A model generated the notes under the pieces. That model did no database searches, was not told where the DNA came from, and saw only the letters and a list, made by a program, of their open reading frames with translations. A program made the position numbers and the translations under genes. A stretch of 64,000 nt of DNA from Obrimoposthia wandeli (lineage: Eukaryota). This document shows positions 1 to 45,600 of the stretch, piece by piece (the stretch's first letter is position 1; each line of letters opens with the position of its first letter). The stretch is from the NCBI GenBank assembly GCA_977020255.1, contig CDROCS010001029.1:1-64000 (forward strand), given 5' to 3'.

Positions 1-260
1 ATCAGTACTGAGTAAAGAAATCTTTATCATCAAAAAGAATTAAGAGAAGTATGTCCTAGAAAAACAGACATTGTTAACGTGAATGGTACAGATGTATGTC
101 GGAAGGAACACTGAAATGTTCATTGAATATCGATGGAAGAGTATTACAGTTAAATGCTAGAATATTCTACAGATTTCCAGGTAGTCCAGTCATGATTGGG
201 ATGGACGTAATACGAATGTTTGAAGGAATAATTATACTATCAAACAACAAGAGTTATAAG
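1..260 (+). pseudogene. Retropepsin-like aspartic protease 1 (C-terminal part; catalytic DTG would lie just upstream of the window)
   Basis: Frameshift-corrected reading SVLSKEIF...VNVNG...EGTLKCSLNIDGRVLQLNARIF...SPVMIGMDVIRMF fits the retropepsin flap and ILGMD motifs. Confidence 0.7.
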
Positions 261-469
261 AATGATAGTTCAGTGAGAGAGATAAAAATGTTGAGAGACC
301 TATAGTCGAAAAGGAAAAATGCATTACGTTCCGTATGGGAAGTTCGTACCCAGACAGAAAACAGGAAGCGCTAGCAAAGTCGATACTTCACTACAAAAAT
401 GTAAATTTCGGACCACAAGATACGACGAGGAGAAAATAACATATGTAAATCTGTCAGAAAGGGATCCCA

Positions 470-1461
470 TGAGATTCGAGAGAAAGAGACGAAATATATT
501 AGAACAGTACTATTCAAAGCGAAATGGCACGTAAAATGGCAAGATCAGGTTTAGAAATGCTAAACGCGACAAGTAGTTGGTGAAGTCAGGAGATAGTATG
601 ATGCATGGTGTGTATAAAGTTTAGAGAATGGGAACAGAATGAAAACCTAATGACGTCATAAAAGAGATGCACCAAATTGTCTTCATTTCTTTTGAAACTG
701 AAAAACGTCAAATGTACCAGAACCAAACGGAAAAGCAATCTTATTTCCCGATTACAGTGATGGGATTCCAAAGGAGAATCAGCCTCTTAATAACAGGTAG
801 AGCACAACGAATAGTCGAATTGAAGATATATTCGAAGTTATGCGAGAAGTAAACGAATGTGACGAACAGTATCGAGAAGCAACTTTCGAAGATCCAAGAC
901 TTAAAAATTGGCAAAAGGGATTTTTGCTGGCAAAAAGGATGGTAAAGATGTAATTAAATGCCAAGTGTAAAAAAAAGAACGAATTATCGACAGATACACT
1001 TGAGCTACCTAAGAAAAAATTTTACATCATGAATTTTAAGTAATTTTGTACTTTTAAAAACAAAATAAAGCAAAAAAGAACAGAAACCGAATGTATAATC
1101 GAATACCAAATCACACGAAAAGAGATTTTGGTCAACAAGACACACCGGTAAAAGTCATTCGTGAGAAGGTTATATCCAAAAGAAGCTGGTGAAAGAACCG
1201 AGAATGGGTAGACGAAAATAAACTACGCGAAACGGATACGGATCGATTTTTGAATTACTGCGAGATAAAGATGACAGTACAATTGAAACAAAAGAGAAAA
1301 GAGTACATAAATGAATTAGAATACGTACTAGAAGATCCGAATGCGCAGTTTGCATGGTAGTTTCAGCGGACATGTAAGAACATGTCGGAGATGTGCTAAA
1401 TGAAATGGTATCATGTCCGATTTGTCGAAGAATAGCCAGATCGACAAGTGAGAAACATTAG
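470..1461 (+). pseudogene. IAP-like module: two BIR domains plus C-terminal RING-HC (frameshifted)
   Basis: BIR1: MARSG...CMVC-IKFREWEQNENLMT-HKRDAPNC (602-680). BIR2: REATFE...KLAK.GF...DVIKCQV(C) (873-970). RING: CAVCM...GHVRTCRRCAK...CPICRR (1342-1431). Confidence 0.7.
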
Positions 1462-1529
1462 ATTTCACTATCCAAACATAGGAAGTTTAATTAATAGAAA
1501 ATAATTGATAAATACAATATAAATTATTA

Positions 1530-1850
1530 TGGGAAACATAAATGGAGCACAGCGACCAGCAGCTATCATTAGAGTGGGGGGCCAATTCTAAGAGTAAAAG
1601 CCCTTAATTATACAGGTGCTGGGAAGTCATAGTAAGTGAAGATCGTTTGACAGAGGAACAGAAACGAACAATGCAGAACCAGATGAATTCCTTGGTATCG
1701 GCTTCAATGGAATTCCGTAAAAGTGACGAATATTACCATGTACATTTATAATTGGACGTAATACGACTACTATACCAGTTAGAATCATGAAAGAAATGTC
1801 CTGAACCTACAATTTTAGAACATGTATTATCACAACTCAAAGGGATAAAG
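1530..1850 (+). pseudogene. Retropepsin-like aspartic protease 2 (start of pol)
   Basis: 1595-1650 reads KAL-I(D)TGAGKS(I)VSED after single-base repairs; downstream TFIIGRNTTTIPVRIM...TIL. Confidence 0.75.
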
Positions 1851-2279
1851 CATTGATTTACAAGATCCAAGATTGAAGGATAGCACATCAAACAGACAAA
1901 TAAACTAAAATTGATGTAATTATAGAGAATCCTATAAAATCGGTAAAAGATCACAATTTCTCATTCAAGGCCACACATTATCAGAAGATAAAGCACCAGT
2001 TGTGTTCGAACCATCACGAGATTTCATAGAGAAATACGAATTACTAGAAGTTGTGGTACAGTATGTCTGATCGAAAAACTACAAAAATACCAGTTAGACT
2101 GATGAATACAACCAACAATGACATTCTATTATACAGAGGAATGAGGTTGGGAAAAGGCCATAGCACAGATGGAGAATCCCACCGTGTGCTATGAAACTGA
2201 TAAAGATACGAATGATTTGATGAAGAAATAGTAATCCAATCAGAAAGACTGACAACTAGAGAAAAGACAATTACTTGAT

Positions 2280-3000
2280 CTAATACATAAATTTCCAAAA
2301 GTAATTGCAAAAAATCCATATGACATAGGAGAAACACCTGTCATAAAAACATACAATACCACTGACAGAAGATAAAGAAATGTGAAGAAGACCCATATCA
2401 GAGTACCATTACAATTACAAGATGAAGTAAAAAGTCAGGATCAGAAGATATGTGCCCAAAACAGGAGTAATTAGACCAAGTTGCCATTCTCAGCACCAGT
2501 GGTGCTGGGTAAAAAGAAGGATGGGAAAATGAGATTCTGTATAGATTTCAGAGAACTGAACAAGATCACAAGAAAAGATGTGTATCCATTACCTAGAATC
2601 GAAGAGATGCTCGATAAATTGGGTAATTCAGATTATTTTATTAAACATTAGATTTGCAGAGTGGATAATAAGCAAATCGAGATAGAGGAAGAGGATAAAC
2701 AAAACAGCCTTTTCCTGCGGAGATGGATTATACGAATGCGAAAAAGATGCCAGCCCGGACTGACAGGAGCCCAGCAAATATTTCAGCGTTGCATGAATTT
2801 TGTACTCGCATCGTGTGCAAAACACGATGGCTTATATCGATGACATAATAATATTTTCGAAAACGTTCGGAAATAACATTTAAAAAAATCTCGAAGTTGT
2901 ATTTAAAAGGCTGGAAAACGCTAAATTAAAAGTTAAACCTACAAAATGCAGCGGGCTAAAGAGCGAGTAACATTTTAGATTGGCTATAGTAATTAAAGAA
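2280..3000 (+). pseudogene. Gypsy reverse transcriptase (frameshifted)
   Basis: PFSAPVVL.KKKDGKMRFCIDFRELNKITRKDVYPLPRIEEMLD, GLTGAP.IFQR and MAYIDDIIIFS (YIDD 2833-2844). Confidence 0.95.
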
Positions 3001-3249
3001 GGCATTCGAACGGATCCAGCAAAAGATCAGGTGCAAAAGCGCATTTAGCGCCAAAAGACTGTTATGAGATTACAGAGTTTTTTGTGTCTTGCGAATTACT
3101 ATAGACGATTTTGTTGAACATTTTTCAGATATAGCAAATACCATTGAGAAAGTTGACGAGAAAAGATGAGAAGTTCATATGGGAGAAGAAGCCCAACAAG
3201 CGTTCGACATTTAAAAGAAAGACTGATAAAAGCACCAATATTAGCGTTT

Positions 3250-3630
3250 CCAGATATAAAACCAGACAATTCATACTCATGACAGATGCACTATGCTGTA
3301 GGAGCAGTATTGGGAAGGCAAGAGGATGACGAAGGAAGAGAACACGCTCATTGCGTATGCAAGTAGAGGATTAAACAGAGCCGAAAGAGGACAGGCCTTG
3401 TTATCGAAAAGGAAGGTCTAGCCATAGTATTCATGTAGACAGTACAGACACTATTTGCTAGGACAAAAAGTATTCCTGTATACAGATCACAAACCACTAC
3501 AGTTCTTATATAAACATAGAGATGAGATGAGTAGATTAAACAGATGGTTTCTAAAATTGGCCGAATTCGATCTAGAAATCCGTTATAGAACCGGAAAGTC
3601 GAATGGCAACGCAGATTGTTTATCGAGATT
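3250..3630 (+). pseudogene. Gypsy RNase H (frameshifted)
   Basis: FILMTDA, IAYASRGL, EKEGLAIV, YTDHKPL, RWFLKLAEFDLEIRYRTGKSNGNADCLSRL. Confidence 0.93.
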
Positions 3631-3879
3631 GACAAATGTAGATGAGAAAGGAAACATAATTCCAGAAGAAGATGAAACCAATGACCAAAAAAGGAGAAGC
3701 AAATCTACTGACGATTTTATAAAGACGGGTAAATAGACAAAGAGATCATCAAAGAACAGAAAGAAGATGAAGAACTCTGAGTCTAATCAAAGAATTGCTG
3801 GTGAAAGGAGATCTAAACGATGAAATGACGAAAAATACTGATAAAAGAAGGAATCTTGTATATTGTCAATAATGTCGGA

Positions 3880-5083
3880 AAGATAGTAGTAGTAATTCCG
3901 AAGTCATTGAAAACAGCAGTGATGATCCAGTATCACGACGGAACACTGGGAGGACATCTGTCAAGGAAAGACAATAGCCAGAATCAAAGAGAAGTACCAT
4001 TGGGATGGTATGGAAGACGACATAAAACAATGGTGTAAACAATGTAAAGTATGTTTAACCAGAAAAGACACCGGAACTCGTACTAAAGTTCCGTTGAACT
4101 AATGTACAGTTCCCTTGGTACCAATGGAATTCATGATGGATATATTGGGACCATTGAGAGAATCAAGTAAAGGAAACAAGTATGTCATAGTATTTACGGA
4201 CTACATGACGAGATGGGTAAAGCATTATCCCATGCAGAACCAGAAAGCTGAAACAATAGCGCAAAATCTTTAGTGGAAAGGAGATAATATTTCGATACGG
4301 AGTGCCTTGTGAAAGTTGTTAACGGATCAAGGTAAGAACCCCCACTGAGAAGTCATAAAAGCAGTATCGAAGTATAGCTCTGGAATCATGAAGCAAAACT
4401 TCACTATATCACCCACAGACAGATGGTCTGGTGGAAAGTGTTTTAATAAAACTTTATGTAAGGATGGTACAATCCTATTGCCTTTAGACAAGGCAAGAGG
4501 ATTGGGATAAATATTTACCTTCATGTTTATATGCTTACAGGAATTCAGTTCGAGAGGCGACAGGTCACACACCATTCTATCTGGGATGTATTTCCCTCAG
4601 ACAGAACAATATGCCAATGGATCTGGAGTGGACCGAGCCAACATCCCAGTACCTAGAAACTGAACAATACATTGGGTTGTCGTCATGAAGGAAAGATTAC
4701 AAGATGCTTGGATTCCAAAGCCGGATTGAAGTTGAAATTCAATCAAGAAGTTCTTACAAGGAACAATACGACAAAAAGCAAAAACCACATTACGAATTTA
4801 GAGTCGGAGATCAAGTGATGATATTTTATCCAGTCATCGAACCAGGTCTATCGTTTAAACTTCTCATAGACCATACAAAGGACCATACAAGGTGATCCAG
4901 ACAACCTCAACAAATTTGAAAGTAACCAACGAAGAGAATCGGAACAAAGAACTGATGATTGTACATGCAAATCGATGCAAATTAGTACCAAATAAAGATA
5001 ATGCGTCACGATATGAGTTAAGATCACAGAAATCGAAGCCAAATACCAATACCATTAAGCTTTGCTACACGAATGGTAAGTGA
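3880..5083 (+). pseudogene. Gypsy integrase (HHCC, DDE core, GPY module; frameshifted)
   Basis: YHDGTLGGHLS...WCKQCKVC, MDILGPL, FTDYMTRW, LLTDQG, DGLVE, GPYKVI...VHANRCK. Confidence 0.93.
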
Positions 5084-5099
5084 TCGGAACTACATAAAC

Positions 5100-6480
5100 A
5101 TGATGACGAGTGGTAGCGAGAAAAACCAGCGAGAATTGGTATGCTCAGAATGAAGTGCCAAGAGGAAAAGGAAGTAATCCGACACATCGCACCACAAGAG
5201 ATATTAGAAGAAGACGAAGAGATAATAGTTGTCTTCGAAAACACAACCAACAGATGTGGCGAAAGAAGTCATTGTGAAAGATGCACTGACAAACGAATTT
5301 CTGTGCGAACTTAGAGTGTCATACTATGACGGAATACACTAGTCGCAGCGCTTTATCAAAATTCCAATGTGTTTACGACTGAGAAAGGAGATAAATCGAA
5401 ATCACATTGACACCAAACATAGTTGCATGGCAGAACTATGACAGTACTGAAGCAGGACTAGCCAGTCAGGAAGAAAAAGAACCGGCCGGTGGTCACATAC
5501 TGCATGGTACACCAAAAGACTCAAACAAGAATACCACGATGTAATAATGGTATTACGTAATTCACATGGGAAAAGAGATATCATGAGAGTCCATTTAATC
5601 GACGCTGACACTGAAAAGATAATTTGTCAGATGGACACTAAATATTTTGATGGAAAGACAATTGTATGTTGTATACCAGAATCTCACCGATTAGAGACAG
5701 ATCAAACGGAAGTATCTGTAAGGTTGAGCGTAATAGAAGGATTCCATTCGCCAACCCATCCGGAAGTGACTAACAATAAAATCATCAAAGCAACGGCAGA
5801 GTTACGCATTGACAGCGGATACCGGAAGTGGGAAGCTAAAAATAAAAAGCCACAAAGAATCAATATGATCCGAGAACAAGTGACCAACTCAATCCAGCCA
5901 AAATATCATGCTGAAATAGTATCATCCGCGCCAAGTGTAATTACATCGATAAACGACGAAATTATAATTTTACTAAAATCGATGGCCGTCATCAACCGAG
6001 ATACGAGTAAACTTAATTAATTATGCGAAGACACCGATATCTAAGCTGAATGTTACCTATTTTGATGGATTGTCCATCATGGGTAAATTGAAACAATTGT
6101 CATGTGCTATGGAGCACAGTTCCAAGTTGAGATACTTAAAGATAGTGTAATACCGTATCCGATTCACAAATGAAGGGAAATCAATCCAATTGTTCTGACA
6201 CCTTCATTGGTTTCTGGTTCAGACAGACATACCAGAATACCCCGCTTCGAGCGAGTCTAGTGAAGACAGCGAACCGGAAAGTAACGATACAGAATCAACA
6301 GAATTCGAAGATAACATAATAGAGCGATCTGGAAGAACCATGGAGATTGGAATTCGCTAAAGAGAGCAGAAAAAGACAAACATAGAATTTGTGAAACAGA
6401 ATATACAAGAAAGACGAATTAAATTTCGCAGAGGAGACCGAGTCGGAAGAAGACTCAACAAAGGAACAGACATCAGAGAC
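5100..6480 (+). pseudogene. Unknown post-integrase accessory ORF(s), frameshifted, with acidic linker
   Basis: Purine-rich coding-like sequence including the 157-aa ORF 5547-6020 and S/E/D-rich stretches that run in frame into the DUSP ORF. Confidence 0.45.
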
Positions 6481-6484
6481 AAAG

Positions 6485-7141
6485 ATGAATAATCCTCCAG
6501 CAATACGAATGCTGAGAGGAAAGAAACTGGCAAAACTAACTAACATCGACGAACAGATAGAGAAGAGATTAGAAAGACTAAAACTTGAAGAGTCAGAATT
6601 AATGCCACAAATGAGTGAGATCATTCCAGGTAAGTTGTACCTCGGAAATGTGGAGGATGCAACAGATGAAAAGAAACTGTTGGAACAAGGAATAACATAT
6701 GTGATCAACGTTACAATGAATCACAAATCGCAATATCAGACGATCAGAGCTATGACATTAAGAGTAAAAGACTCAATGGACGCCAATCTTCTCGAATGGT
6801 TCGTAGAAACAAACGAAATACTTCACAGAGAACTCCGGAACAAAGGAAAAGTGTTGGTACATTGTCAGAAAGGAATTTCTCGATCAGCAACCCTAGTATT
6901 AGCATATCTAATAAAGACTAGACGAATGCAGGTACTAGAAGCGTTAAAATACCTACAGGAGAGAAGAAGTATTGCAAACCCAAATCTTAATTTTTTGGGA
7001 CAGTTGGCAAATTACCAACTTCTGTTGCAAGAACAAAGACGGATGGACGACATTCCTGAGGATCCAAAGGAAAAGAATTTCCTCCAAGCATTATCACTGA
7101 CTGGGTTATTTTTAGCCGAGTCGACAAAATTACACAGATAA
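6485..7141 (+). CDS. Dual-specificity protein phosphatase (DUSP/DSPc) carried by the retrotransposon
   Basis: SEIIPGKLYLGN, ITYVINVT, D of LRVKDS, catalytic VLVHCQKGISRSATLVLAYLI, EALKYLQERRSIANPNLNFLGQL. The ORF is uninterrupted. Confidence 0.95.
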   Translation: MNNPPAIRMLRGKKLAKLTNIDEQIEKRLERLKLEESELMPQMSEIIPGKLYLGNVEDATDEKKLLEQGITYVINVTMNHKSQYQTIRAMTLRVKDSMDANLLEWFVETNEILHRELRNKGKVLVHCQKGISRSATLVLAYLIKTRRMQVLEALKYLQERRSIANPNLNFLGQLANYQLLLQEQRRMDDIPEDPKEKNFLQALSLTGLFLAESTKLHR

Positions 7142-7843
7142 TGCCAAAAGTATTTTTATGTCATCCAGGAGATATAGATACTGCTGGATTAAAGTTCCAC
7201 AGTATCAACCGAGTAATCAATATTGTTGAAGTCGGAAACGAGATAATTAGTCTGTGTCAAAATACTGAAGACGACACCACTCGATACATACATGCTTCTA
7301 ATCGAGAGATAAACGATGCACAACAACATCTGACGAAATTGACTCAAACCATCCGCTTGAAGTCACAGAAGGAAACGGCGTTCTGATATATCAGAAAAAG
7401 GTACGATGTTAGCGCCTACCATAGGTGTATCCTTGTTGGTAGAGTACCATGGTCACACGCCAGAAGAAGCGATGGTCTACATCAAACAGAATAGACCGAA
7501 TACGGAATTCAAACCGTTACTCGTTCGAGAAATAGAAAAATACACCGAAAAAAGGAAGCAACAACGAGAAATAAATGAAGCTACAACAACAGTGCCCAGC
7601 TTTCAATACCAAAGATTGCTAGCGATAGGCTTGTTAAGTTGTTTAATGCCGATAACGGGAGCACAAGAAATAGACTCCAACCTCGGAAATAGTTCCTGGT
7701 TCAACGAAATCCAAAATTACACCATACAGTACCATACACCGGCACTGATGATGCTATTAGTATTGTTAGGACTAATTGATGTGTGGATCATCCGAAAATG
7801 TCTTCGATCTATGAGAACCGACAGTAAAGATTTCAGTTTGTAA
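7125..7843 (+). pseudogene. Second, catalytically dead DUSP-like domain followed by signal-like and transmembrane segments
   Basis: Single-base repairs join ITQIMPKVFLC...INRVINIV...KENGVLIY(S)EKGTMLAPTIGVSLL...EEAMVYIKQNRP; then LLAIGLLSCLMPITGA and ALMMLLVLLGLIDVWII. Confidence 0.65.
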
Positions 7844-7845
7844 AG

Positions 7846-9054
7846 ATGAAAAGACCAAATGGACCAACAAACAAAGTGCTTGTGTATCTAGACGAAAGGA
7901 TCGAAGACAACATAGTAAATGAAGCGATATTTTACCCACAAAAAATAGAATACTGAATCAATTCCGAATAGATTACGAAGCTGACCGACAGCACACACTT
8001 GACCGAATATCAACAACATTCGCCGGATGCAAGCGAAGTAAACGAGTAGTAAAGGAAATACAAAAAGATGCTGATACAACAGGACCAACGTATATATTCC
8101 ACGGAGATGTCATCAAGACACGCGAGTATGGAAGTAAGAGAGTAATAATTGAAACAATGGAAGGACATCACACATGCTTGTCCGCCAAAAATGGATTCGG
8201 GAAGTTGACGATACAAGGTAAACCGGTACAGTTGATTATCGGAAGAGATGGAATCGAGGAGATGTCAAAACAACGACAGACAACAAAACGATACAATCAG
8301 AAACAGATATCTCTCAAACGATTGATAATTAAAACCCTTTGTAAAGGTCGGTCAAAGCCCTGTGCACCGTTGCACAAGGATTGATTTATGGAGTAGTAAT
8401 TGGATTGGTACTGCAAGCCATGCCAACCAGTAAAGCCGAATTGATGACACTATCCGAATATAATTTACATTTGAGAAATCTAGACAACACCCTAGAAATA
8501 ATCAAGACATCCCACAGTAGAGCCGTGATGATCATGTGTGTAAAAGGATGTCCAGGACGAATGTATAGTCCCAGCGACCGAAATGATAACACTTAATGGA
8601 CATTATGGAGTTAGTGTTGTCACATGTGAAGACTACATATTTGGACAAACTAAAATAGTGCTTCTCAGTGACATGTCCAACCAAAGTGCACACAAATTTA
8701 AAAATATTAACCATCAAGAGTAAAGGAATACCAGCAGTACGTTATGGTATTCTAGAATTGGTTAATCCAATACTCGCACTGATCATTGGATTTATAATAT
8801 TAATATTACTCATCTTGTTTTGTTGTTCAAAGATAGAGTCGAGATCAAAAAAGAAACGTCATGATCTCGCAAGACGAACAGGTCAAATGAACTTACAAAA
8901 ATTCAACACAATTATACCAAGACCACCATTTCTAGATGAACCAGCACCAGAGTACCAGCCAACGATATATGAACATATTGAGGAAAGACCGTACTATATG
9001 AGTAATTTGACTTGTTTCATTGAAGTTCCTGAGTTTAGAATCGAACGATCATAG
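7846..9054 (+). pseudogene. Accessory ORF ending in a type-I-membrane-like protein (frameshifted)
   Basis: Hydrophobic LIYGVVIGLVLQAMPTSKA, Cys-containing ectodomain, TM ILALIIGFIILILLILFCC, basic stop-transfer, Pro/Tyr-rich tail (PAPEY, IYEHI). Confidence 0.55.
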
Positions 9055-9059
9055 GAATC

Positions 9060-9575
9060 ATGCTGATCGTACAAATCACCACTACCAAGGCTAGTTATGA
9101 GATCATGATCAGTAAATGGAGACAAGACGTAATACGGGCAATATACATAGAAATTCCCTTACTAAAAACAAATCACGTAGTAGACATTCATCTACAGACG
9201 TCAGCAACTGACAATATCGATCAGAAATTGTATGTCATTCGACAGGTCAGAATAAAAATCGACCAAAATACACCTGTTTACAATTTAATATTATTGCATC
9301 ATGAAAGAGTGTTATACCTACGGATAACAATATCAAAGAGGAAGCGGATTATCCAAAGTATCCGAACAAAGTCCTTAATATTACCTAGAGATGAGCGCAT
9401 CTGGAAAATTGTCGACAGGATTATGATCACAGGTAGACGACGTAAAGCCGTATGGAATTCCGTTAGGTTATTTTTCAGATTGCTAGAAACTGACAGCGTG
9501 ACAGTAATGTGTCCCAACCCAGATGGCGTAATCAGATTCGAAATCCAAAGCCAAATGTTAGTACCACATTTTTAA
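9060..9575 (+). CDS. Hypothetical 171-aa basic protein (retroelement accessory ORF)
   Basis: Uninterrupted ATG-TAA ORF packed 5 nt after the previous stop and 6 nt before the next ATG; no family recognised. Confidence 0.6.
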   Translation: MLIVQITTTKASYEIMISKWRQDVIRAIYIEIPLLKTNHVVDIHLQTSATDNIDQKLYVIRQVRIKIDQNTPVYNLILLHHERVLYLRITISKRKRIIQSIRTKSLILPRDERIWKIVDRIMITGRRRKAVWNSVRLFFRLLETDSVTVMCPNPDGVIRFEIQSQMLVPHF

Positions 9576-9581
9576 CACAGA

Positions 9582-10330
9582 ATGTCTGTGTAATCGAATT
9601 GCCAGTAATTCTACAGAGACCTCGACCATAATCATGATAATAACAGGTGAAATATTCTACATAACTCTAAGATACCAGAACCGTCGATTTCGCAGATACG
9701 GTATAAGTATCAAACCCAGGAAAATCATTCCCAGAAGACCAATCCTTAGTCAAAAAGAAGGCAAAGGTAATCGAAAGTAAACGACATTCCAAGAAACCGA
9801 CAGTGATCAAAACAAAGACAGAAGTGAAAGAAAAGAGTCCAATCCCAGAAACCAAAGTACAATTATTAAGAGGACAAGAGTGAGGGGAACGATCCCACTA
9901 GATCCCAAACATCATTTCCAATCCAAAATAATAATACCTGTTCCATCAGAAACAAAACACCCAAATTCCCGAATTTTTAGAAAATCGGACATAATACATG
10001 GAAACCGATCAAAACCCATGGAAATATCATTCGAACCGACAAACGACAAAATGAAGTATGATTATAAAACATCAGACAGCGGAATAACAGCGGTCAATGC
10101 CCTAATTGGAATGGCCGTAGTGTCAACAGCGGTGGTTCTACTTTACAATCGTGTGCGTAAAAGGCAGTCAAGTATGCCCAGGAATACGACGAAAATGCGA
10201 AGGATTGCGATGCTGTGACACACCCATCATGGAGGAAGTGGAATAGACTTACCTCCACCTCCCATCAAGATATGATGAGTCTGAGGAGGTTGTAGATAAA
10301 TCAGTGTGTGAAATATGTAGAAATATCTAG
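9582..10330 (+). pseudogene. Accessory single-pass membrane protein (frameshifted)
   Basis: ATG at 9582; ORF piece 9880-10218 contains TM AVNALIGMAVVSTAVVLLY followed by RVRKR; polyproline segment near 10250. Confidence 0.5.
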
Positions 10331-10398
10331 AAGCGATTGTACAAATAGTAGAAGTATATAAAACTCATGTAGAAATTAATCATCATCATGTATTTAGA

Positions 10399-10760
10399 AT
10401 GGCCGAAGAATGCCCAATATGTTTAGAAGATCTAACCGAACGAAGAACAAGACCCGAAACCTGCAACCATTTACACCACGAGGAATGTTTATCGACATGG
10501 ATCAGAACTTATGGACAGTTCGGACACCCAACATACCCTCGTTGCCCTATATGCAGAAGACAATTCGCAAGATTCGTCATGTTAGAACCCAACCAAAGGG
10601 ATGTATATGTACAGGTGGTATTCTGCTGGAAGAATTTCGGAGAGTGTTGGTGTTATTACTGTTTGTCAGATCGACAAAATCAGACCACTTTTTGTGTAAA
10701 GATCACACAACCACCAGTCCTCAATCGAGCCCAAATTCAACATCAACCCTCCCACAGTAA
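10399..10760 (+). CDS. RING-H2 protein 1 (probable frameshift near 10700)
   Basis: C-x2-C-x13-C-x-H-x2-H-x2-C-x18-C-x2-C, followed by CWK-x4-CWC-x2-C. Confidence 0.85.
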
Positions 10761-11065
10761 TGTCTGGAGAATGTTCCATCTGCTACGAGAGCATCGTGGA
10801 CTTCTACACCAAGCCCAACAACTGCGATCACCTTTTCCACGTCGAATGCCTCGAGACGTGGATCCCCATCGCAAACAGCAACAACCCCCTCGACTTCCCA
10901 ACCTGCCCGATGTGCAGAGCGACCTTCTCAGTACACTACGTGTACAACCAAGACAGCCTCCAAGCAGTGGTACCCATCGTACACTGCTGGAAAACCATCT
11001 GCGATTGCTGGTGCTCGTTCTGCGTGGAGGAGCGAAGCACAGGCCAGCCCAATCCCCAACAATAA
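10760..11065 (+). CDS. RING-H2 protein 2 (paralogue of RING 1)
   Basis: Intact 101-aa ORF with the same RING-H2 spacing as RING 1 and the same CWK-x4-CWC-x2-C tail. Confidence 0.9.
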   Translation: MSGECSICYESIVDFYTKPNNCDHLFHVECLETWIPIANSNNPLDFPTCPMCRATFSVHYVYNQDSLQAVVPIVHCWKTICDCWCSFCVEERSTGQPNPQQ

Positions 11066-11407
11066 TCGAAGGTAACTTTCTGACTTGAACGTGACATCAT
11101 GAACTTTACCCTGTGTATCGCATACCGCGATAAATTAGCTACCATAATTGTAATCATAATTATATAATCTTGTGAACTGTAAATTGACCATTACCATTTT
11201 TATGTATGATGTTTAACTGAAATTGTAATTATTATACTGAATTTCTAAAAAAGACAATTTTTATGCTTAGTGTGAATGCGTAAACATGCCTAAAATCGAA
11301 ACAAAACTCGGTAGGATTAGATAACTAAGGATTCATTTTGAAACAAAAATTAAATTAACGATGAGAACGGTGAACCCCAAATTGAAAGGAGTCAATTTCT
11401 CATGCAG

Positions 11408-11905
11408 ATGTTGTGCTCCGTATGCATGGAGAAGATTTGGGCGGCATCAGCATCCCCTGTCGGCTGCCGCCACAAGTTCCACGAATCCTGCCTATATACT
11501 TGGGCCCGACTTCGACCCGAAGGACATGTCAATTGCCCTTTTGCCGCACTCCCTTCGCGGAATGGACACTACATTGTCGAGGGCGCCACAAGGGCACCCA
11601 TTCGCTCACCAGCTGAATTGGTGACGAGCACTGCCAGTGCCCCGACTGTATCGCGCGCCGTCGCGATGCAAAAACTCGCCCTCCGCGAGAAATACCGGTC
11701 AACCCGTGACCCCCGCTCATGGCAGCGTGGCCGTCAAATATGGCTCAAGAATCGCGGAGTACACGGGCGGTACACGACCATTTTTCACCCGAGCCAACAC
11801 CTCACCATGCGCCAGCAGATGATACTGTACGATGGCGGCCCACCATCGTATCCAGAACTACCACTGGAGCAGGTCTTGCTGTTTTTGAGAGACCGGAACA
11901 ATTGA
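11408..11905 (+). CDS. RING-H2 protein 3 (frameshifted at the last ligand; PPxY near C-terminus)
   Basis: CSVC-x13-CRHKFHESC-x14-CPF(C): one extra T in the T-run at ~11539 restores CPFCRTPF. PPSY at 11840-11851. Confidence 0.75.
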   Translation: MLCSVCMEKIWAASASPVGCRHKFHESCLYTWARLRPEGHVNCPFAALPSRNGHYIVEGATRAPIRSPAELVTSTASAPTVSRAVAMQKLALREKYRSTRDPRSWQRGRQIWLKNRGVHGRYTTIFHPSQHLTMRQQMILYDGGPPSYPELPLEQVLLFLRDRNN

Positions 11906-12427
11906 CAAATCCCTGACAATCACCCTTGATCCTTTCCCTTGAATAATTTTTTTTGGTTGTCGTAGTAATAATGTATAAATTGAGACATGCTCCAACTTAT
12001 GCATTATAATTTCCACTAAAAACCGGGTTTTGGAAAATTTTTTTGGGCATGTTTGTTGAGGTTGAATGATTGTTTTGTAGGGATGAACCTAAAATCAACA
12101 GCCAAAGGCTTATTTAAGTAAAATCGATACGTTCCGGGGACGTAACTTTTTTGGAACCCCCGAGGTATGTTAAGGTTGAGAATTAAGAAAATTAAATATT
12201 TTAGTTGATTAAATACTAAAATAAAAAAGCCTTGAAAGCAAGGTCGAAAATCAAATTAAAATATTAAGTTGAATTTTAGAAGTAAAATTAGTGAAATATT
12301 AGGGTAAAATTAGGAGGACCACGAAGGTCGTGTATTATGCGAAAATGTATAAAAGTTAAACTAATTAACCCAAAAAGGGACAATTTCAAAAACAATTAAG
12401 AAAAATTAAGAAGAAAAACGGTTAATT

Positions 12428-12622
12428 AAAACCGTCAATCAAGAAGAAAAAAGGTAAGCACATTTCGTGCAGTAAAATCAAATTTAGTTTTTCAGCTGCC
12501 GTTGACTGACAGGAAGAAGATTCTCCAGAAATCAAACCGTCAATCAAGAAAAGGTAAGCACATTTTGTGCAGTCAAATAACTCTTAAATCTCATTTCAGC
12601 TGTCGTTGACAGACAGGAAGAA
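12428..12622 (+). repeat. Two imperfect ~90-bp direct repeats in putative U3
   Basis: AAACCGTCAATCAAGAA...GGTAAGCACATTT.GTGCAGT...TTTCAGCTG.CGTTGAC.GACAGGAAGAA at 12428-12518 and 12534-12622. Confidence 0.85.
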
Positions 12623-12625
12623 CCA

Positions 12626-12632
12626 TATATAA
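12626..12632 (+). promoter_or_regulatory. Candidate LTR TATA box
   Basis: TATATAA directly after the U3 duplication; position is plausible but unverified. Confidence 0.45.
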
Positions 12633-12727
12633 GGAGAACCCAATAGTGACAAATCACAATCACAAATACGGGATCGACTGAGAAACAACGAGGCAGGAAG
12701 AAACAATCCCCTCGTCAGACGAACCGT

Positions 12728-12982
12728 TAACTGATTTGAAGAAACGATCCTAACTGATTTGAAGAAACGATCCTAACTGATTTGAAGAAACGATCCTAAC
12801 TGATTTGAAGAAACGATCCTAACTGATTTGAAGAAACGATCCTAACTGATTTGAAGAAACGATCCTAACTGATTTGAAGAAACGATCCTAACTGATTTGA
12901 AGAAACGATCCTAACTGATTTGAAGAAACGATCCTAACTGATTTTGAAGAAACGATCCCTGACTGATTTCGAAGACGATTCC
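12728..12982. repeat. 23-bp tandem array in LTR (9 perfect plus 2 degenerate copies)
   Basis: Unit TAACTGATTTGAAGAAACGATCC read directly. Confidence 0.97.
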
Positions 12983-13067
12983 GCCAGGCTCGCAAACACC
13001 ACATACGGACCCTACACCGGACGTCCCACGAGTTGCTGTAACTGGTAAGAACACAGACTAGGTTCGT

Positions 13068-13500
13068 TCATTGCCCCTAGTAGGCAATTAGGATATATTC
13101 ATTACCCCTAGTTGGTAATTCTATATTTCCTTAATAATACACGAATTCATTGCCCCTAGCTGGTAATTAGGATCTTGTCTCTTTAGCACAATCATTGCCC
13201 CTAGTTGGTAATTAGGTTCGGACCTTTATTCATTGTCCCCAGCGACAATTAGGAAACTTACCAGACGTTTTTTCCCGTAAGATTCATTGTCCCTAGCTGA
13301 CAATTAGGTTCCTTCATTGCCCCTAGTTGGTAATTCGGATAAATATTCATTGTCCCTAGTAGACAATTCGGTAAGACTCATTGTCCACTAGCTGACAATT
13401 CGGTTCGCACATTGTCCGTAGTTGACAATTAAGAGTAAGTTTTATTGTCATCTTGACAATTAGGATAATTAGGAGATCCCTTGTCTACAGTAGACAATTT
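13068..13500 (+). repeat. Array of 12 palindromic hairpin repeats with unique spacers in LTR
   Basis: Consensus TCATTGYCCCTAGYWGRYAATTMGG; stems ATTGCC/GGCAAT, ATTACC/GGTAAT, ATTGTC/GACAAT; spacers about 5-30 nt. Confidence 0.92.
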
Positions 13501-13770
13501 GGGTCGAACACACACAGAGAGAGTAAGGAACAAAGAAATATTTGGCTAGAGATAAGAAGTAGGAGCGAAGAAAATTAAGAGAGTTGCGTTATAGATTAAC
13601 CAACCTGAGTAAGAAGACTAAACCTAAGAAACTTAATCACCTGAACGTAAAATCGATACGTGGTTCATCCCCACTTCTTGTAGAGACTCACAGAAGTCCT
13701 TTAGGAATTTTATCATACTTTTTAGAAATACGTACATAAACGTATTGTGGTGTTAGTTACGTGAATTTTG

Positions 13771-13776
13771 AATAAA
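13771..13776 (+). terminator. Candidate LTR polyadenylation signal
   Basis: AATAAA about 205 nt before the LTR end. Confidence 0.4.
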
Positions 13777-14109
13777 CAATTTCCTACATTAGAACAAGTT
13801 GTTTTTACACCCTTCAGACTAAGAGACATCAAATCAATACCTTCAGATAGTACAAGAGATTAGGCAACCATAACACTAAGTAGGCCACGACCAACTTTAA
13901 GACCTGCTTCTATTCGAACTCACGTTGGGGCCCTCCGCACACTAAGAGGATCTGTACAAGTCTCGTATAGAAACCCCAACACATGCACGAAATTTCACTC
14001 CACACACATGCACGGTTTTAAAGGACAGAGTGGGGGAAGGGGTGTGGATTAGACCGGACACATCCACCTACTGTTATCTTGAGTCTGGTTATAAGGTTTA
14101 CATCTATTT

Positions 14110-24600: not shown

Positions 24601-27600
24601 TGTTTATCCAGCCTGTTATGAACTCTACACAGTATATTATTACACAATCCAACAGCAGACTCTTCGTATTTTAGATATGGACCAGGAGTTTTTTGGTAAT
24701 GAGGTAATCGGAGGATTCATAATATTCATACAATCATTCGACACGTACCGTACCAAACACCCAAACACAACATATGGGTAAATTATAAAGTATACATTAC
24801 ACTGTCAATTATGGATTTCTAATTTATTTTTGAATTTATTCCATGAGGAGCATTAGATAAAGCATGAAACAGATGGAAGTCAAAACGTCTTGAAATATTA
24901 CTATAAATAAAATATTTTCTAAAATAAAAATACATTGCATTGAACAAAGTTCCTGTTTATGCAGACCCATTCTGGGGGTCGTCAATGTCTGTGAGGGAAT
25001 GATTATCCCTGGACGACTCGTATTGGAAAATATCAAGGTCATCAAACATGAAATCATACATGCATTAGTAAGTAATATATTTATAAATAAATTTCGATCG
25101 ATTTATTTTCAATTCTTTACTCAACTTGAAAATGTCTTTATAACCCTAGAACTATATCTTCGTTTTGAGAATATGCGTATTATTCGAGACTATGCAATAC
25201 CCCAAGTGTCAATAACAACTTTGATGTACCTAAAAGAAAAATGTCTCCTCATTAAACAGCCAGCCTAATTTTTACATGAAATCTGCATCTGGTACCTCTT
25301 TGAAAGTCAAAAAAAGTCTATTTTAATTTCAAAGAAGACATTCCTTACCATAAATTACCACTATGTACTGACGAAATAATGACAGTAGATTTTCAACAAC
25401 AAAAAATACACGAAGACATGCATAAGGATTTATCGAATTGGCGCTTATCTAAAATACTTTATTTTGTATTTTTTTAATATTACAATGAAATGTGTGTAAA
25501 CTATTTATAAAAACCATCAATAACACGGCTTTATATGGCTTAACTTACACTTTATGGTTAAAAATACAATTGCGTAAAAATGATCTTATTATAATCCCAA
25601 AAAAATAGATAACATTACACTTGGTTCTCAAACAGCAGCTTTAATTATTGTTTTAGCGCATATACAGTATAGATAACATATTAAAACAGCGAATTTACAG
25701 TATAGATAACCTATTAAAACAGCGAATTTACAGTATAGATAACCTATTAAAACAGCGAATATACAGTATAGATAACCTATTAAAACAGCGAATTTACAGT
25801 ATAGATAACCTATTAAAACAGCGAATTTACAGTATAGATCAGGGGTGGCCAACAAGTCGATCGCGAGACCAATTTTGGTCGATCACTCGCAAGTTCGGGG
25901 TTTGCGAAAAGTATCTCATAAAAACTTTTAACTTAAAAAGTATAAATACTTTTTATTCAAATGTTTTCTGTGATTAGCTCATAGAAAGGATATAATTTTT
26001 ATATTATCATTATTTTTATTAGTTTGTTTTGACATTTGAAATGGTTTTATTAAGTTCTTTTTCTTTGCACTTTTGCAATTCTGTTTTCTATTTAAAGCTT
26101 TTGTCGGTAGATAACTTTTTTGCTGCTGCTACTTTTTGCTACCTATATAAAATTTATTTGAATTGGGATATTACAAAATCAGCATAATACTTCGGCTTAT
26201 GATAAAAACTTATACAATACATATAAAAACGTATATAAATGATGTTTATTTAATAAATCTGAAATACAGTGCGTTTAAAATTGACTTGTATTTACACTTC
26301 TGAGAAATTTATGACTATTAAAATAAATAATTTTCATATTTACAATTAACTAAAACTAAACTTCGTTCCGTCCTGACCGATTCTCATACTGAGGACTCAT
26401 TGTTATTGTCTTTGTCAGGATATACTCCAAATTATGATGCACTAGTAAAGGAAATGCAGACTCAGGTTTCTCATTAATTTAAAAAGTTTGAATGAATAAA
26501 TGTTATTAATAAGTGCTCATGTTGTTTTAATTCCTCTGGACATAAGTTTTTTAACCCATTAAATAAATACTCATGTATGTAGATTATTTACCCCTTAATC
26601 ATGGAGCTCGCCAAAGTGCACGTCGGTATAAAAGCACATTGCAAAAACATCCCCTTCTTACCTAAAAAATAGGTCGATCGCGACACAATTTATAAATAAA
26701 AAGTAGATCTTATGTGCACCAAAGTTGGCCACACCTGGTATAGATAACCTATTAAACAGCAGATATATAGTATAGACTCGTCGAGGCTGGGTATCTCCGT
26801 GTGCAAAAAACGATACATATTTCTATTAATGTACAGAAATACTCACAAATAAAATATTTCAAATGTATATTTGTTTTTTCATATAAAGTATGATTCATAT
26901 CAAAATGAAAATAAATTTTATTCCAATTAATTGTTTGTGTAATTAGTATATTATTTAAAAAGAAGTTAACACATTATATACACAAGGGAATGCTTCCAAA
27001 TTGAACACTCGGAATTGAATGTAATTTTGTATATATTATTGGTAAAATATTATACAAGTTTCGAGTACTATAAAACTTTGGTGCAAACACAGGTAAAAAA
27101 ATAATAAATAAGTTATTAGTGTCTCCAACATCGTGGGAGTGTTGGGGTTTCTATATGAAACTTTTCTAATATAGATCCTCAGACAGAGGGCCCCAACGTG
27201 AGTTCTATAGAAGCAGGACTTGTAGATGTTTGTGGCCTACTTGTGTTATGCTTGCCTATCTCAATATATATCTGAAGGTTTGTTATCTCTAATTTGAGGG
27301 TCTATAACAACGCTGTCTAGTTGCAGGAAATCTTTATTTCTAAAACACACGAATTTACGTCTTAACACATTCTAAAAAACAGCAATACTAATCCTAGTTA
27401 CTTTACACAAAATCCTTACACAAGTGGGGATGAACCACGTATCGATTTTAATTTTAGGGTTGATTGTTTACTTGAGTCTTTACTCTAAAAATAACGGCTG
27501 ATTTTAGAGAGCTGGTTGCTCTAAAAATATGAATTGATTTTGGATAGGTCTAACAATTGTACTGTGTCCGGCTCAGTGGGACTTGTTCAAATGGGGAAAA

Positions 27601-30600
27601 ATCAACTTCCTATTTTCCCAAAAACTCTAAATTGAATATGATACAATATAATTTTATCAAAATAATGCTTTACAATACACTTTAACTCTCTCCACAATGT
27701 TTAGAAAACAAGTAATTCAAAATTATAACGGTTTACAATATACTTTATCTATCTTCACAATGTTTAGGACAACAAGTAATTCAAAATTATAACGTTCTAC
27801 AATACACTTTAACTTTCTTCACAATGTTTAGGACAACAAGTAATTCAAAATTATAACGGTTTACAATATACTTTATCTTTCTTCACAATGTTTAGGACAA
27901 CAAGTAATTCAAAATTATAACGGTTTACAATATACTTTATCTTTCTTCACAATGTTTAGGACAACAAGTAATTCAAAATTATAACGGTTTACAATATACT
28001 TAATCTATCTTCACAATGTTTAAGACAACAAGTAATTCAAAATTATAACGTTCTACAATACCACTTGCTCACCACTTATCCGTTCTGGAGAGCTGACTGT
28101 TGTCCGGTCGCGTTTCCAAATGTCCTCATATTCCGCCTCGTCCTAGTCAATCGAGGGAAATCTGTTTCTTTCCGTGATTTGGATTTTGCTGTCTTCACTT
28201 TTTGTTCTCTTTCGATTCAATGTGATACTCAGTCTTTTATACTGAATTTCTGAAATTCAATTAGTTTCAGCACTTAACTTATTGTTCACTTACTTCCAAC
28301 AAGTTGCAGAATCGAGGAGGTCTGGCGGCTGGCTTGGTAAGTGTTTTTCTTTTTTGTATTGTTTAACTTTAGCTCCTGGAACGATTTTAAGTAGAGCACT
28401 TAATAAAAAGCACTTTCTTACAGACGGCTGTCTCTGCTCCCGGCGCGGCTCTTTTCAGAAATGGATTGCTGCTGTATTTCGTCTGTCTCTGCAGCTGACT
28501 CGATTCTCACAATGAATCGATCTGATATTTTCCTTAATTGACTCGCTTAATTCAATTTTCCTTGGGCTTTTTCTAACCGTCTAACTCTGTTTTTTGGGGC
28601 TCTTTTCAATCTAAACTCTCCTTTAAATACTGCACACTAAACATGACCTTCGTGGTCCTAAATATTTAATTTTCCATTTTACTTTAATGATTTTAATTTT
28701 ATAATTAATTTTATCCTAAATATAACCTTGCTTTCAAGGATTTTTATTTTAGTATAAAATCAATTAATTATTTTAAATTAATCAAAACCCAATCCTAACA
28801 GGAGTGTGAGGCCGCATTCAGTCAAATGACAGTATTAAAGAATGAATACAGAAACAGACTGGATCTTGAAAAGTACTTAAGAATTGCTGTCAGTTCATGT
28901 GAAGCAAGAATTGAACACATTATTAGTAAACAAGAAAAGCAGCATCATTCTTTACATTAATACATTTTTTGTTTATTATGTTTAACTCAAGTAAAAATGA
29001 ATATTTATTTTAAAAAACGTCATCTTTTAAAGGGGATAAAATCCAAACATATGTCCAAACATATAAAATAGTTTGGGGACCACTGATCAAGTTATTAATA
29101 AAATTAGCAAAATGAATTTTTAAATAAAAAAAATTTAAAGTATATCATGTGAGATTTTTCATGTTTATTTTGAAATTGTTATTTATTTGATTATATTTGG
29201 TAATTATTGTAAAATTTCTTTATATATTTTTTTAGTTTTTCTCAAAATTCTAAAATTTTCATAACCCTCAAATTAATTTTTATATTCATATATATATTTA
29301 TAAATATTCCTTATATATTCCTTAATTCAGAATAATTTGAGCGCGTATGAAGAAACAAAAATTCAATTGTGAACGTCCAAACTAAAAGCCTTCCTTAGTC
29401 AGTAGAATATTTCAAACTTCTTAGTACATTTTCTACAATTGGAAGTAGTTAAGCTAAGTTGAAACAGATTACAGTTGAACTATTCTTCGGAAGGTTTTTA
29501 TCAAGTTAAGATTTTAAAATTAAGTTTTTAACATGGAAAATTTTTTGAGACAAACAATAATAATTTCTTCTTATTTTTTCAGTAATATTTTATTCTTTAG
29601 GGTTTTGCAGTGGACCAATTTGCATTCTTTCGAACACCTGATGGAAATCCTTATGTACCCCGTAATGATGCTGGATTACCAAATTTAGGCCTTGGAGAGG
29701 GGAACAGGTGAGTTCGGAACGCTTTTGTGAGATTGTGTGAGTCCGAAATTGTTCTAATCTCATTCATGAATTTAATTTTGATGCTGTGATTGAATTTAAA
29801 ATATATTGTACACCATTTCATTGTCGGAAAAATATTACACTTTTATTCACATAAATTTATTTCCATATTTGTAAAAGAAATCATTTTGTAATTATTTTAC
29901 AAATATATAATAATAAATTACATAGTCCATTCAAAATATAATCTTCAGAATTATTTCTAAATTTGAAAACACCCAAATATGCATATTTTTTAGTATTTTA
30001 ATTTATTCATTATTAAAATTAGATAATATCATTAAATATGCTCCAACTAAATGATGAACAAAGGAAGATTGGTATCCAATTACTTGAAGGCGGAATTTAG
30101 AAAAAGTAGATAACAAATTTGTGTTTCCCCATCTATCATTACTCGATAATCACAAACATCAGCAAAATTTGGAACAAGTCATCGCATCAGAAGCTAAACA
30201 GAGCCGACACATCAAAAATTCAGAAATCACGTATTCAATTAAACACATAAAATTCTCCAACACTGTAACGTTGTAAATTGAGTTAAATTAGCAAGTTTTG
30301 TAAATAAGAGAACACATAGACAAATGTGAGGGGAACGATGCATTTAAATTAAAGTGCTTCCCTTTGATCGCTATGCAGTGCAATAATCGAAATGAACCTA
30401 AACTTTGGAACAAGTTAAAAACTATACCAAGTATTTGGGTCGTCCTGTCACTCATGTCCATCTTTTGTATTCCAATTAAAAATTGACACAACTTGGTTTA
30501 CGTCATTGAATCTGTTCGACATACTGACAAGCTCTCTCTATTATCCTGACTTCTTACGTGAATGTTTACCGAAAAACCTATTATAATCAATTATAAATGT

Positions 30601-42600: not shown

Positions 42601-45600
42601 CATTTGTATGGACAAAAATTATGGAGTCTCTCTTGTATATAAGATACCAAGGGAGGCTCGATAAGAAAAAAATCTTTATGTGATTTTTTGGTACTGTTTT
42701 AGATTTAATACAGAAGTCTACAAGTTTTATTGTGGTTTACATATATGACTAAGTAGAAACAATATTGTAAACAGTTTCTATCAGGACGAAGACAATTAAA
42801 ATATGCACACTTATTGCACTTAACTTAACTTATTGCTTGTATAGTGCTTGTACACTTTGCATTTTCTATCTTTGTGGCTTCACCATTGCTGTGCAATGTC
42901 CCACTTTATCAAACTGTATTATCTTTTAGCAATTTCTGCATATAATACCAATTTGTTACCACCTGAAACTTCAATAGTGTGATTCCCACGTCGAGGAGTA
43001 CCATTTGATGACTTTGTTTTATCTGTAAGTAATAACACTGAGCTGATTGATGTTGTGAACTTCAAGAGATCAATATTGATCTGCATTTCATTTGTAATAA
43101 ATACAACTTCTTCATGATCAGAATCTTCATATTTTCATAATTCAAGACCTTATTATCTGACAAACCAGCACCCAGAAGAGCCGTTAAAATAGTTTTCCAT
43201 CTCCCAAACTGATTAAGTTTTACTTTGTTATCCATATCAACTCAAGGGGACTTTTAATCATGATGGGTTAAGAAATAGACGGTTTAAGCGGATTTTCAAA
43301 AATAAAGATAAACAGAAATTCGTGTAGCAAATAACATTACATATTTTATTTAAAAAATCGATTATATTAGTTTGTTTTTTGCTATTAAGAAAGCGACTAT
43401 AAATTCCCTAATTCAAAGATGAAAAAGAGAATGAAGTTATGTCCATACTTAGTTGTTCCGTGTATTAACGATGAGTCTCAACAACATTGATGGTATCCAT
43501 CAGTTTTATTACTTGTGGCTCATCTTTTGAAAGATCCTCAATATTTTCAATTAATATCCCATTTTTCACTGATATTTTGAAATTGACAAATGAAAACGTC
43601 ATCTCGGTCGATTTTGGGTACATTTAGTCCACAATTTCGAGTTGTTCCTAAACTTACAAGAAAACGTACTTTGATGTCATAAAAATTAGGAGTTCGCAAT
43701 TTGTATAAAAATTAGGAAATGAATTCTACATATAAAAGTAATTTAATTATCTTCTAGTTTTCAGTATATAAAAAGTTAGCGTAAGAAATATTTATGTGAT
43801 AAATTTATAAATGTGTTTAAATATATTAAATTATAAAAACACTAACGTGATTATATGAATAAATACCAAATAAAAATTTATTACTTAAAATATTAAATTG
43901 TTATTAGTTTAAAATAAAACCTTAACAAATTTCTATTGTATTTTAAAATTAGCAACACTATTTCAACTAGTGCGCTTAAAATTTTGGATTTAAATTATTT
44001 CAATTTAACCAAATCATAAAATTTATTTTATAAAAATTTAATACATATAACTTTTTTATTATAAATAAATAGCAGCTAAAACTACATTTTTAATATTGAA
44101 ATATATTATGTTTATTATATACTAAAATTTCACTGAGTTCTTTTTATGAAACAGATTAACAACAAACCCGAATGTCTGGTGCAATTAACCACATAGCTAA
44201 TTTTGACTGTCTTCTAAGCCAACCTCAAAAAGTTGAAACTGTTCAAAAGTGTTGACTGAAATATATTTTTAGTGACAATAGATCATCCAAGAAAGCCATT
44301 ATTTCAGATAATTATGGTTCATATTTGTATTACTTTCATATGTAAGTAATACGATAAACTACTTTAATTTTTTAAAACTAATATTATTTTGTGTAACCAT
44401 ATTTAATTTAGAATAAATAATAAATTTAAATCGTAACTTTGTCATAAATTTAGTTTACTAACATTTTTAATACTTTGTATTATCACTGCTGAACTGATTT
44501 AAAATGACTTTGATTATGAGTTAAATAGTATATTTTACTATCATTGTCACACTTTCTTGGAGAGTTACGAGTTAGATGGTTAGACGTGTTAAAATTGACT
44601 TAGTCTTTATTTTTCTGTGTGGATTTTTATGGCTGAAGTCTACTGTATCATTTATTATGATTACTCTTAAATAGTAGTATCTACTAAACTATGATGTAAT
44701 ACGATAAGGAACTGCAGAAAATTTGACTAAATTATGTATTGAATATAAAAACTTATGCCTAATTAAAACAGGAAAGTGAGTTTAATAAAATAAATATGTT
44801 CTATCAAAAGTAAACATGTTTACTGATGCACACATCCTTACATTTGGGTGAAATATTATCTCGTAATGGAACAGCATATATGTGGTGTCCAGGAGAACAA
44901 AAGCGGAATAAATTGAATATATCATGGTGTTTTACCGGTTTAGAAGATTATTTACATTCGGAATGAAGTTAGTTGATTTAAATTATTTCTATAGAGCCAG
45001 CTCCAGCTCGCTGAAACTGTTGTTGAACATATTGCAATAACACATGTTCATTCATTGAATAGAATGCGTCAATTTCTGTGTTTATCCCATAATACAAATA
45101 TGTGTTTCCAATGACAATATAAACCATCTTCTCAATCACTATGTAAACAGTTCAACATGCTGTTTAAATAAATATAGATCACTCACAAAATCAATGATTA
45201 TAGGCTAAGCAATAAACTGAAGAGCTGATGATGATTCACAACAGAGTATCACAAAAGTGAAAACAGCGTCAGTGTCATTATATTGTACGGATGGCACGGA
45301 TGCTGGGGTAATTGTCTTTTCTGATGAAAAATTGTTCACTGTTGAGGCCCAGTTCAACTTGCAGAACGACAGAATTTTAGCTAAGAGTGCTGATAGCATT
45401 CCCAGTTCGGTAAAATCCGTTTACCGTCGCCAAAAACCTAGCTCGGTAATGGTATGGGCTGCCATCTCTGAGAATTGGAGATCCTCTCTCATTTTTATTA
45501 AATAGGGTGCCAAAGTTAACGCAAACTCGTACATCCAGGATATTTTGACTCCAGCCCATGTTGAAATGAAGAAACATTCCAAAAATGACCCTTTCACATT

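Follow-up and report, generated by a model that had tools for sequence, protein, structure and literature searches.

The window analysed here is a 64,000-nucleotide (nt) stretch of Obrimoposthia wandeli DNA (assembly GCA_977020255.1, contig CDROCS010001029.1, positions 1 to 64,000). Its positions 1-13981 are the 3' ~14 kb of a Burro-like Ty3/Gypsy long terminal repeat (LTR) element, which is truncated by the contig start. Behind a giant polyprotein, the element carries three small open reading frames (ORFs), RING1, RING2 and RING3, which are real, separate genes under selection. Its RNA undergoes spliceosomal cis-splicing, as shown by three different LTR mini-introns that have each been lost exactly, from GT to AG. 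Our best reading, which we hold to be somewhat probable, is that alternative cis-splicing from LTR donors makes the RING mRNAs. A first-pass annotation of the window had listed six AG-ATG motifs as the starts of a cassette of accessory genes, each with an mRNA of its own made by cis-splicing or by spliced-leader (SL) trans-splicing. The letters and coordinates of all six motifs are correct (AG 7845, 9054, 9580, 10397, 10757 and 11407; ATG 7846, 9060, 9582, 10399, 10760 and 11408), as is the LTR donor CTG/GTAAGA, with its G at 13045. The LTR mini-introns, a local donor at 11072 and a TATA-like box before RING1 were outside that annotation.

The 3' LTR holds the following features, all on the plus strand (a slash marks a splice point).

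12168..13981, plus strand: 3' LTR (TG...CA), 1814 nt, with no ATG past LTR position 178.
12348..12356, plus strand: first TATA-like box, after the conserved GGACCACGAAGGTC motif; a likely promoter.
12454..12495, plus strand: LTR mini-intron 1, 42 nt, GT-AG; 12 other sites show its exact loss.
12554..12599, plus strand: LTR mini-intron 2, 46 nt, GT-AG; 3 other sites show its exact loss.
13045..13050, plus strand: candidate major donor CTG/GTAAGA, directly before a hairpin-repeat array.
13719..13776, plus strand: TTTTTAG acceptor-like site (ends 13725) and AATAAA (13771), both in all LTR types compared.

Mini-introns 1 and 2 are GTAAG...TTTCAG units, and other LTR types hold different units of 39-46 nt. 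To find intron losses, we scanned the genome for the downstream LTR exon preceded by non-native letters. Eighteen such sites were found. Fifteen of them are exact GT-AG removals (12 of intron 1, 3 of intron 2), compared with 648 intron-bearing sites; one of the intron-1 losses is followed by a 9-nt duplication. A third unit, of 44 nt, was lost exactly in the sister LTR L092, which was picked regardless of introns. Slippage is a poor explanation of the losses because the intron ends share only AG. Intron-less LTRs form groups that differ by 8-10%, and one element has two intron-less LTRs that are identical over 630 aligned bases. The number of independent loss events is uncertain, as template switching could have spread a single loss. 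In many mini-introns, a short GCAC...GTGC hairpin lies just after the donor (window 12454-12470, sister LTRs).

Past LTR position ~200, no ATG is present in 4/4 family LTRs or LTRs with leaders, for which a first-order model expects 20-54. Three sister LTRs have 1-2 ATGs in the same part (16-24 expected). This ATG-free LTR points to a transcription start after the first TATA-like box and to a long scanned leader. GTAAG follows the 13045 exon end in 24/25 cases, and in each LTR type compared a GTRAG donor immediately precedes the repeat array and lies upstream of AATAAA. Within the polyprotein, GTRAG is halved (20-23 versus 40 expected); the minus strand is low too.

Right after donor 13045 lies a CATTG...CAAT palindrome array (window 13059-13500) that folds better than 100/100 shuffles (z -2.9). 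It may be a packaging or an anti-splicing element; the C408-type LTR has no such array. The LTR middle (window 12500-13630; copies C408, C447 and C31) is wholly different between copies while the LTR ends are conserved and the internal regions are 95-98% identical. Each of these middles carries a different tandem repeat (23, 29/58 or 67 nt), as in an exchangeable LTR core. TAAAATCGATACGT is found just before the LTR (window 12119-12132) and again inside it at ~13650. The bases preceding the 3' LTR form no plain polypurine tract.

Upstream of the LTR, the RING region is laid out as follows.

10355..10363, plus strand: TATA-like box TATATAAAA.
10375..10397, plus strand: candidate 3' acceptor A1 (TTAAT ... 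ATTTAG).
10399..10699, plus strand: RING1 ORF, 99 amino acids (aa) in 22/31 parsed copies and 229 aa in the window via a frame shift near its end.
10735..10757, plus strand: candidate 3' acceptor A2 (CCCTCCCACAG), which terminates a 60-nt AUG-free spacer.
10760..11065, plus strand: RING2 ORF, 101 aa.
11072..11407, plus strand: intron-like spacer of 336 nt, from donor AAG/GTAAC to the GCAG of candidate acceptor A3.
11408..11905, plus strand: RING3 ORF, 165 aa in the window and 176 aa in many copies.

All three ORFs match zf-RING_2 in Pfam (E 2e-9 to 3e-6), and their ratios of nonsynonymous to synonymous substitution are 0.07-0.44 against sister copies. They are paralogues, and their proteins are probably E3 ligases. 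The accessory-gene cassette thus holds for the ORFs that start at 10399, 10760 and 11408. We reached the sister families via two solo LTRs in the window, and RING ORFs were present in 4 of 40 fetched stretches upstream of sister LTRs. A protein-level search with RING2 across the genome found identical copies only, and none of 66 candidates (90-289 aa) was homologous to RING3 at E 0.001. ATG 11402 was rejected as the RING3 start; it is absent in 3/39 copies and in sister families. One element internal region has 453 ATGs. Since hundreds of AUGs precede the RINGs, they need 5' ends of their own or a special start. A distant RING2-RING3 pair, with no RING1 in 540 nt upstream, is present in L163 (G000:C3856:238600-240470, minus strand) and L161. 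It lies opposite to an LTR end and a primer-site-like sequence, a rearranged or antisense placement.

The gap from AG to ATG is 1 nt for RING1, 2 nt for RING2 and 0 nt for RING3. A single site of this kind is unremarkable, as YAG lies within 0-2 nt of 50/453 element ATGs (11%). A YAG at 3/3 RING starts gives p ~0.001 assuming independence; the true value is larger because the RINGs are paralogous and the rule was set after seeing them. A 2.9-kb element query gave 41 matches, from the best 40 scored of 5,846 candidates. The YAG is kept in 39/39 copies at each RING, which is weakly informative because these copies are 89-99% identical. In sister families, the A1 AG is kept in 3/4 copies, that of A2 in 4/4 and that of A3 in all. 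The 40 nt upstream of RING1 and RING2 are identical at 37/40 and 36/40 positions to a sister family with 24-31% synonymous difference. At RING2, TAATG has become CAATG in three sister copies with CAG unchanged; stop-start coupling was rejected there, the TAATG overlap not being conserved. The proposed splices would remove two out-of-frame ATGs, one 11 nt ahead of RING1 and one 47 nt ahead of RING3. A1-A3 are weaker than the mini-intron acceptors.

A3 is the strongest conservation case of the three candidate acceptors. GCAG precedes the RING3 ATG in 6/6 compared sequences, including one whose RING3 is only 34% identical and one from a more distant third family; L128 has one extra base between GCAG and ATG. 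Only 8-16/40 of the positions preceding this GCAG match in four divergent sequences, and all four have YTRAY at -23 to -25. The AAG/GTAAC donor stands 6 nt after the RING2 stop in 6/6 sequences. The spacers that it opens are 306-347 nt long with 26-31% G+C, and their first 84 nt are 79-95% identical between sequences. In the window, the spacer has 31% G+C and the flanking coding DNA has 48% and 57%. Judged by these sequence features, A3 may act both as the acceptor of a local intron and as the partner of a distant donor.

The three upstream motifs have a different origin. The plus-strand region 1..10275 is the 3' two thirds of the Burro-like polyprotein, with BIR, RING, protease, reverse transcriptase (RT), RNase H, integrase (IN), two DSP domains and a tail. 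It is frame-broken in this copy and includes ATGs 7846, 9060 and 9582; in other copies, 7060-10275 is the polyprotein tail. Each 10-nt step between the gag ATG and a point 40 nt short of the end lies in an open frame of at least 250 codons in at least one of 12 copies, and the frame breaks fall at different places in different copies. Every stretch being open in at least one copy, we conclude that this is a single ORF of ~5,350 codons. The window copy has 11 frame-changing indels in 7820-10240, each against 31-39 of 37-39 other copies, and these window-specific indels account for the apparent small ORFs. Its frame breaks are still denser toward the contig start, which suggests uncorrected read errors.

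ATG 7846 is an internal Met with at least 51 open in-frame codons upstream in 34/37 mapped copies. ATG 9060 is another, with at least 57 such codons in 32/38 copies. The lead example of the first-pass annotation, AG 9580 with ATG 9582, does not stand: this ATG opens 3 codons only in 39/39 copies and is out of frame in the long ORF, where it lies in Glu-Cys codons, and the T-tract before the AG is gone in 3/3 sister copies. AG 7845 ends a Lys codon and is lost in 2/37 copies and in both aligned sister copies. The TAG at 9054 is kept in 3/3 sister copies, but it is part of Ile-Gly codons. The sites at 7845, 9054 and 9580 thus belong to the polyprotein, so three of the six flagged sites drop out and start no accessory gene. 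As a caution, indels near a contig end can turn one polyprotein into a false small-gene cassette.

Under the favoured reading, a promoter near the LTR start would give one long RNA. Its AUG-free leader would let ribosomes scan to the polyprotein, leaving the three RING ORFs behind it beyond scanning reach. An LTR donor, of the 13045 type or from a mini-intron, would join one of the three weak acceptors, each of which precedes a RING ATG by 0-2 nt. In a full copy, the distance from LTR donor to RING acceptors would be ~18-19 kb. Alternative cis-splicing would then put each RING ORF at the front of its own mRNA, and the second donor at 11072 could join A3 locally to give a multiply spliced class. 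One spliced mRNA per accessory gene, as first proposed, fits the three RINGs by site conservation and by the cis-splicing of the element.

Several results weigh against this reading. Among genomic copies, we found no junction that enters any of the acceptors A1-A3 or leaves donor 13045 or 11072. Such a blank is expected for splices from an LTR donor to the RINGs because they remove the primer site, so that the element should not copy them. The 11072-11407 splice keeps the primer site. Exact loss of this spacer was found 0 times beside 2,923 native sites, which counts against frequent use of the splice in packaged RNA, unless replication requires the conserved 5' half of the spacer. Donor 13045 is absent from other LTR subtypes, which have different donors, and it has possible nearer partners in 13725 and in 10 TTTYAG sites of one leader. 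The sister copy L088 lacks the A1 AG, the window and L123 lack YTRAY before A3, and in one distant homologue of RING2 the AG is placed 7 nt upstream. UUNYAG, reported as the acceptor motif in parasitic flatworms (PMC12582326, in excerpt), fits none of A1-A3.

The candidate junctions inspected in this search were all set aside. Donor 13045 gave 2 matches, both small local changes, and donor 11072 and RING1 gave 3 each, all local changes. Three matches for spliced retrocopies at the RING3 start were all small insertions (the pattern cannot detect exons that end in CGAAG). The RING2 pattern gave 6 matches: one local change, one distant homologue, and four judged from the matched letters only. Six of the 7 matches to the LTR terminal acceptor were inspected, and all were short insertions. 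Matches from query position ~803 proved to be colinear copies and not splice products. In 15 of 193 joints viewed in contigs of one sample, of unclear kind and with depth across the element, no donor-acceptor pair was seen, and these were used neither for nor against splicing.

An internal promoter that starts a subgenomic RNA just before RING1, with RING2 and RING3 reached by local splicing (11072 to 11407) or re-initiation, is an unlikely alternative. The TATA-like box TATATAAAA is 36-44 nt upstream of the RING1 ATG, and the RING1 spacer is conserved well beyond the AG, as expected of a promoter. The Oikopleura elements Tor3b/4b express env from an internal promoter (PMC4402516, in excerpt). 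However, the box is not intact at the corresponding place of sister copies L086-L088, RING2 has no preceding TATA, and leaky scanning to RING2 would be stopped by the several ATGs of RING1. This explanation would also leave the conserved AG before RING2 unaccounted for.

It is rather improbable that the closeness of AG and ATG has no splicing role and is chance or a remnant of RING duplication, with the RINGs translated by internal entry or re-initiation. The 11% background, the paralogy of the RINGs, the three flagged sites that were such chance matches and the zero losses of 11072-11407 are all in keeping with it. GCAG and a branch-like motif nevertheless persist before RING3 amid random neighbouring DNA, with a conserved donor and a G+C step at both ends, and the AG-ATG gap differs between the RINGs.

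SL trans-splicing, which would resolve the RING ORFs as an operon via the same AGs, is the least probable of these explanations. The first-pass annotation had offered the cis and SL routes alike; the element holds genomic evidence of cis-splicing and none of SL trans-splicing. AG conservation is compatible with either route. Planarian SLs end in AUG. The same is reported for parasitic flatworms, whose acceptors are often common to cis and trans splicing (PMC12582326, in excerpt), and SL trans-splicing is present in planarians (PMC10899757, in excerpt). With an SL ending in AUG, RING1 and RING2 would each be immediately preceded by an AUG in the wrong frame; the SL AUG would be in frame for RING3 only. 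Moreover, cis donors lie upstream on the same RNA (11072 and the LTR, at least the mini-intron ones being in use), where an operon should have no competing cis donor; a cis donor is said to out-compete an SL (PMC4558846, in excerpt, citing Hastings 2005), and the RING1-RING2 spacer has no AATAAA or ATTAAA.

Three full-length copies of the element measure 23-24 kb; they carry 4-bp target duplications, and the two LTRs within a copy are 98.9-99.95% identical. At least 2,923 genome sites carry one 22-nt element motif. Pfam gives the order gag zinc knuckle (zf-CCHC), Monjiviricetes fusion domain, BIR, RING, protease, RT, RNase H, integrase and two DSP domains. The fusion domain (PF24664, E 6.5e-95) is in frame after zf-CCHC and ahead of BIR (E 5.5e-10) and RING (zf-C3HC4_3, E 1.5e-12), both of which precede the protease. 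A ubiquitin domain gave a weak match only (E 0.019). No named Burro protein is among the 120 matches listed by a protein search; the closest listed are unnamed ENA proteins at 52-58% identity, and the named matches are Gypsy-type pol proteins at ~40%. Six proteins of 2,600-3,100 aa (P0062, P0100, P0108, P0110, P0112 and P0116), five unnamed from ENA and one labelled bacterial, are 52-58% identical in RT-IN and also have the fusion domain within the polyprotein. They represent related giant elements outside this genome.

Elsewhere in the window, two sister-family solo LTRs with a common LTR end motif lie on the minus strand (27140-28800 and ~46680-48100). Both carry intron-like units and a tandem array of their own. 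Remnants of DNA transposases lie at 45566-45985 (DDE_3) and 52527-53417 (DDE_Tnp_1_7).

The closest known system is Burro/GYPSM1, a group of giant planarian Ty3/Gypsy elements that number thousands of copies and have accessory ORFs beside one very long ORF. In that ORF, the gag zinc knuckle is followed by a fusion protein of mononegavirus type, placed ahead of pol, then by BIR and RING, and lastly by protease and RT-RNase H-integrase (PMC6431247, in excerpt). The domain layout of our element is this Burro layout, which by itself would suggest a triclad host, and it shares the single ORF of ~5,000 codons from gag to integrase, the giant size, the thousands of copies and the accessory ORFs. It differs in being shorter (19-20 kb internal and 23-24 kb in all, versus up to 25 and over 30 kb) and in having two DSP domains after integrase and three 3'-end RING ORFs. 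MATH, BCL2, ankyrin and dUTPase domains gave no Pfam match in the element; the Burro review's detection used HHpred. The titles and abstract starts found in a literature search held nothing on Burro RNA splicing or Burro LTR introns; the 2026 Burro1 paper (PMC13047482), the original Burro paper and supplements lay outside that scope and may bear on novelty. The words "splic" and "intron" are absent from the text of PMC8532177, and the excerpt of the Burro section of PMC6431247 has nothing on splicing. Burro1 is reported to support planarian stem cells via its BIR-RING region (PMC13465017, in excerpt, citing Lee et al. 2026). If the RINGs do have mRNAs of their own, three further conserved RING ORFs become candidate host-modulating accessory proteins. 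Exact short-intron loss in many near-identical LTRs (15 lost versus 648 kept) leaves a trace in the genome from which intron loss by reverse transcription can be counted.

Flatworm operons resolved by SLs likewise have closely spaced ORFs with an AG just upstream of each (PMC12582326, in excerpt), whereas our element has upstream cis donors on the same RNA and acceptors that miss UUNYAG. The Oikopleura Tor elements are also invertebrate LTR elements with a downstream ORF, whose expression depends on splicing of the 5' LTR transcript in Tor3a and on an internal promoter in Tor3b/4b. However, Tor has one such ORF (env) compared with three RINGs, and the Tor3a donors map near the gag start (PMC4402516, in excerpt).

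In foamy viruses, the major splice donor is inside the LTR (PMC3694450, in excerpt). Our element resembles foamy and complex retroviruses in its LTR donor upstream of the poly(A) signal, its accessory ORFs near the 3' end and its several weak acceptors. Complex retroviruses splice to several acceptors. The element differs from them in its Gypsy-type pol, its fusion gene inside the polyprotein and not in a separate env ORF, its ~3 kb leader and its whole introns inside the LTR; a Rev/Tas-like regulator was not identified in it. The element resembles a complex retrovirus in respect of splicing, yet it is a Burro-like Ty3/Gypsy element and no retrovirus. We tentatively propose that Burro-like elements could run a complex-retrovirus expression programme evolved within Ty3/Gypsy, in which a ~2-kb LTR would be mostly spliced 5' leader, short introns would be lost repeatedly by reverse transcription, and alternatively and multiply spliced mRNAs would serve three accessory RING E3 ligases over an 18-19 kb intron.

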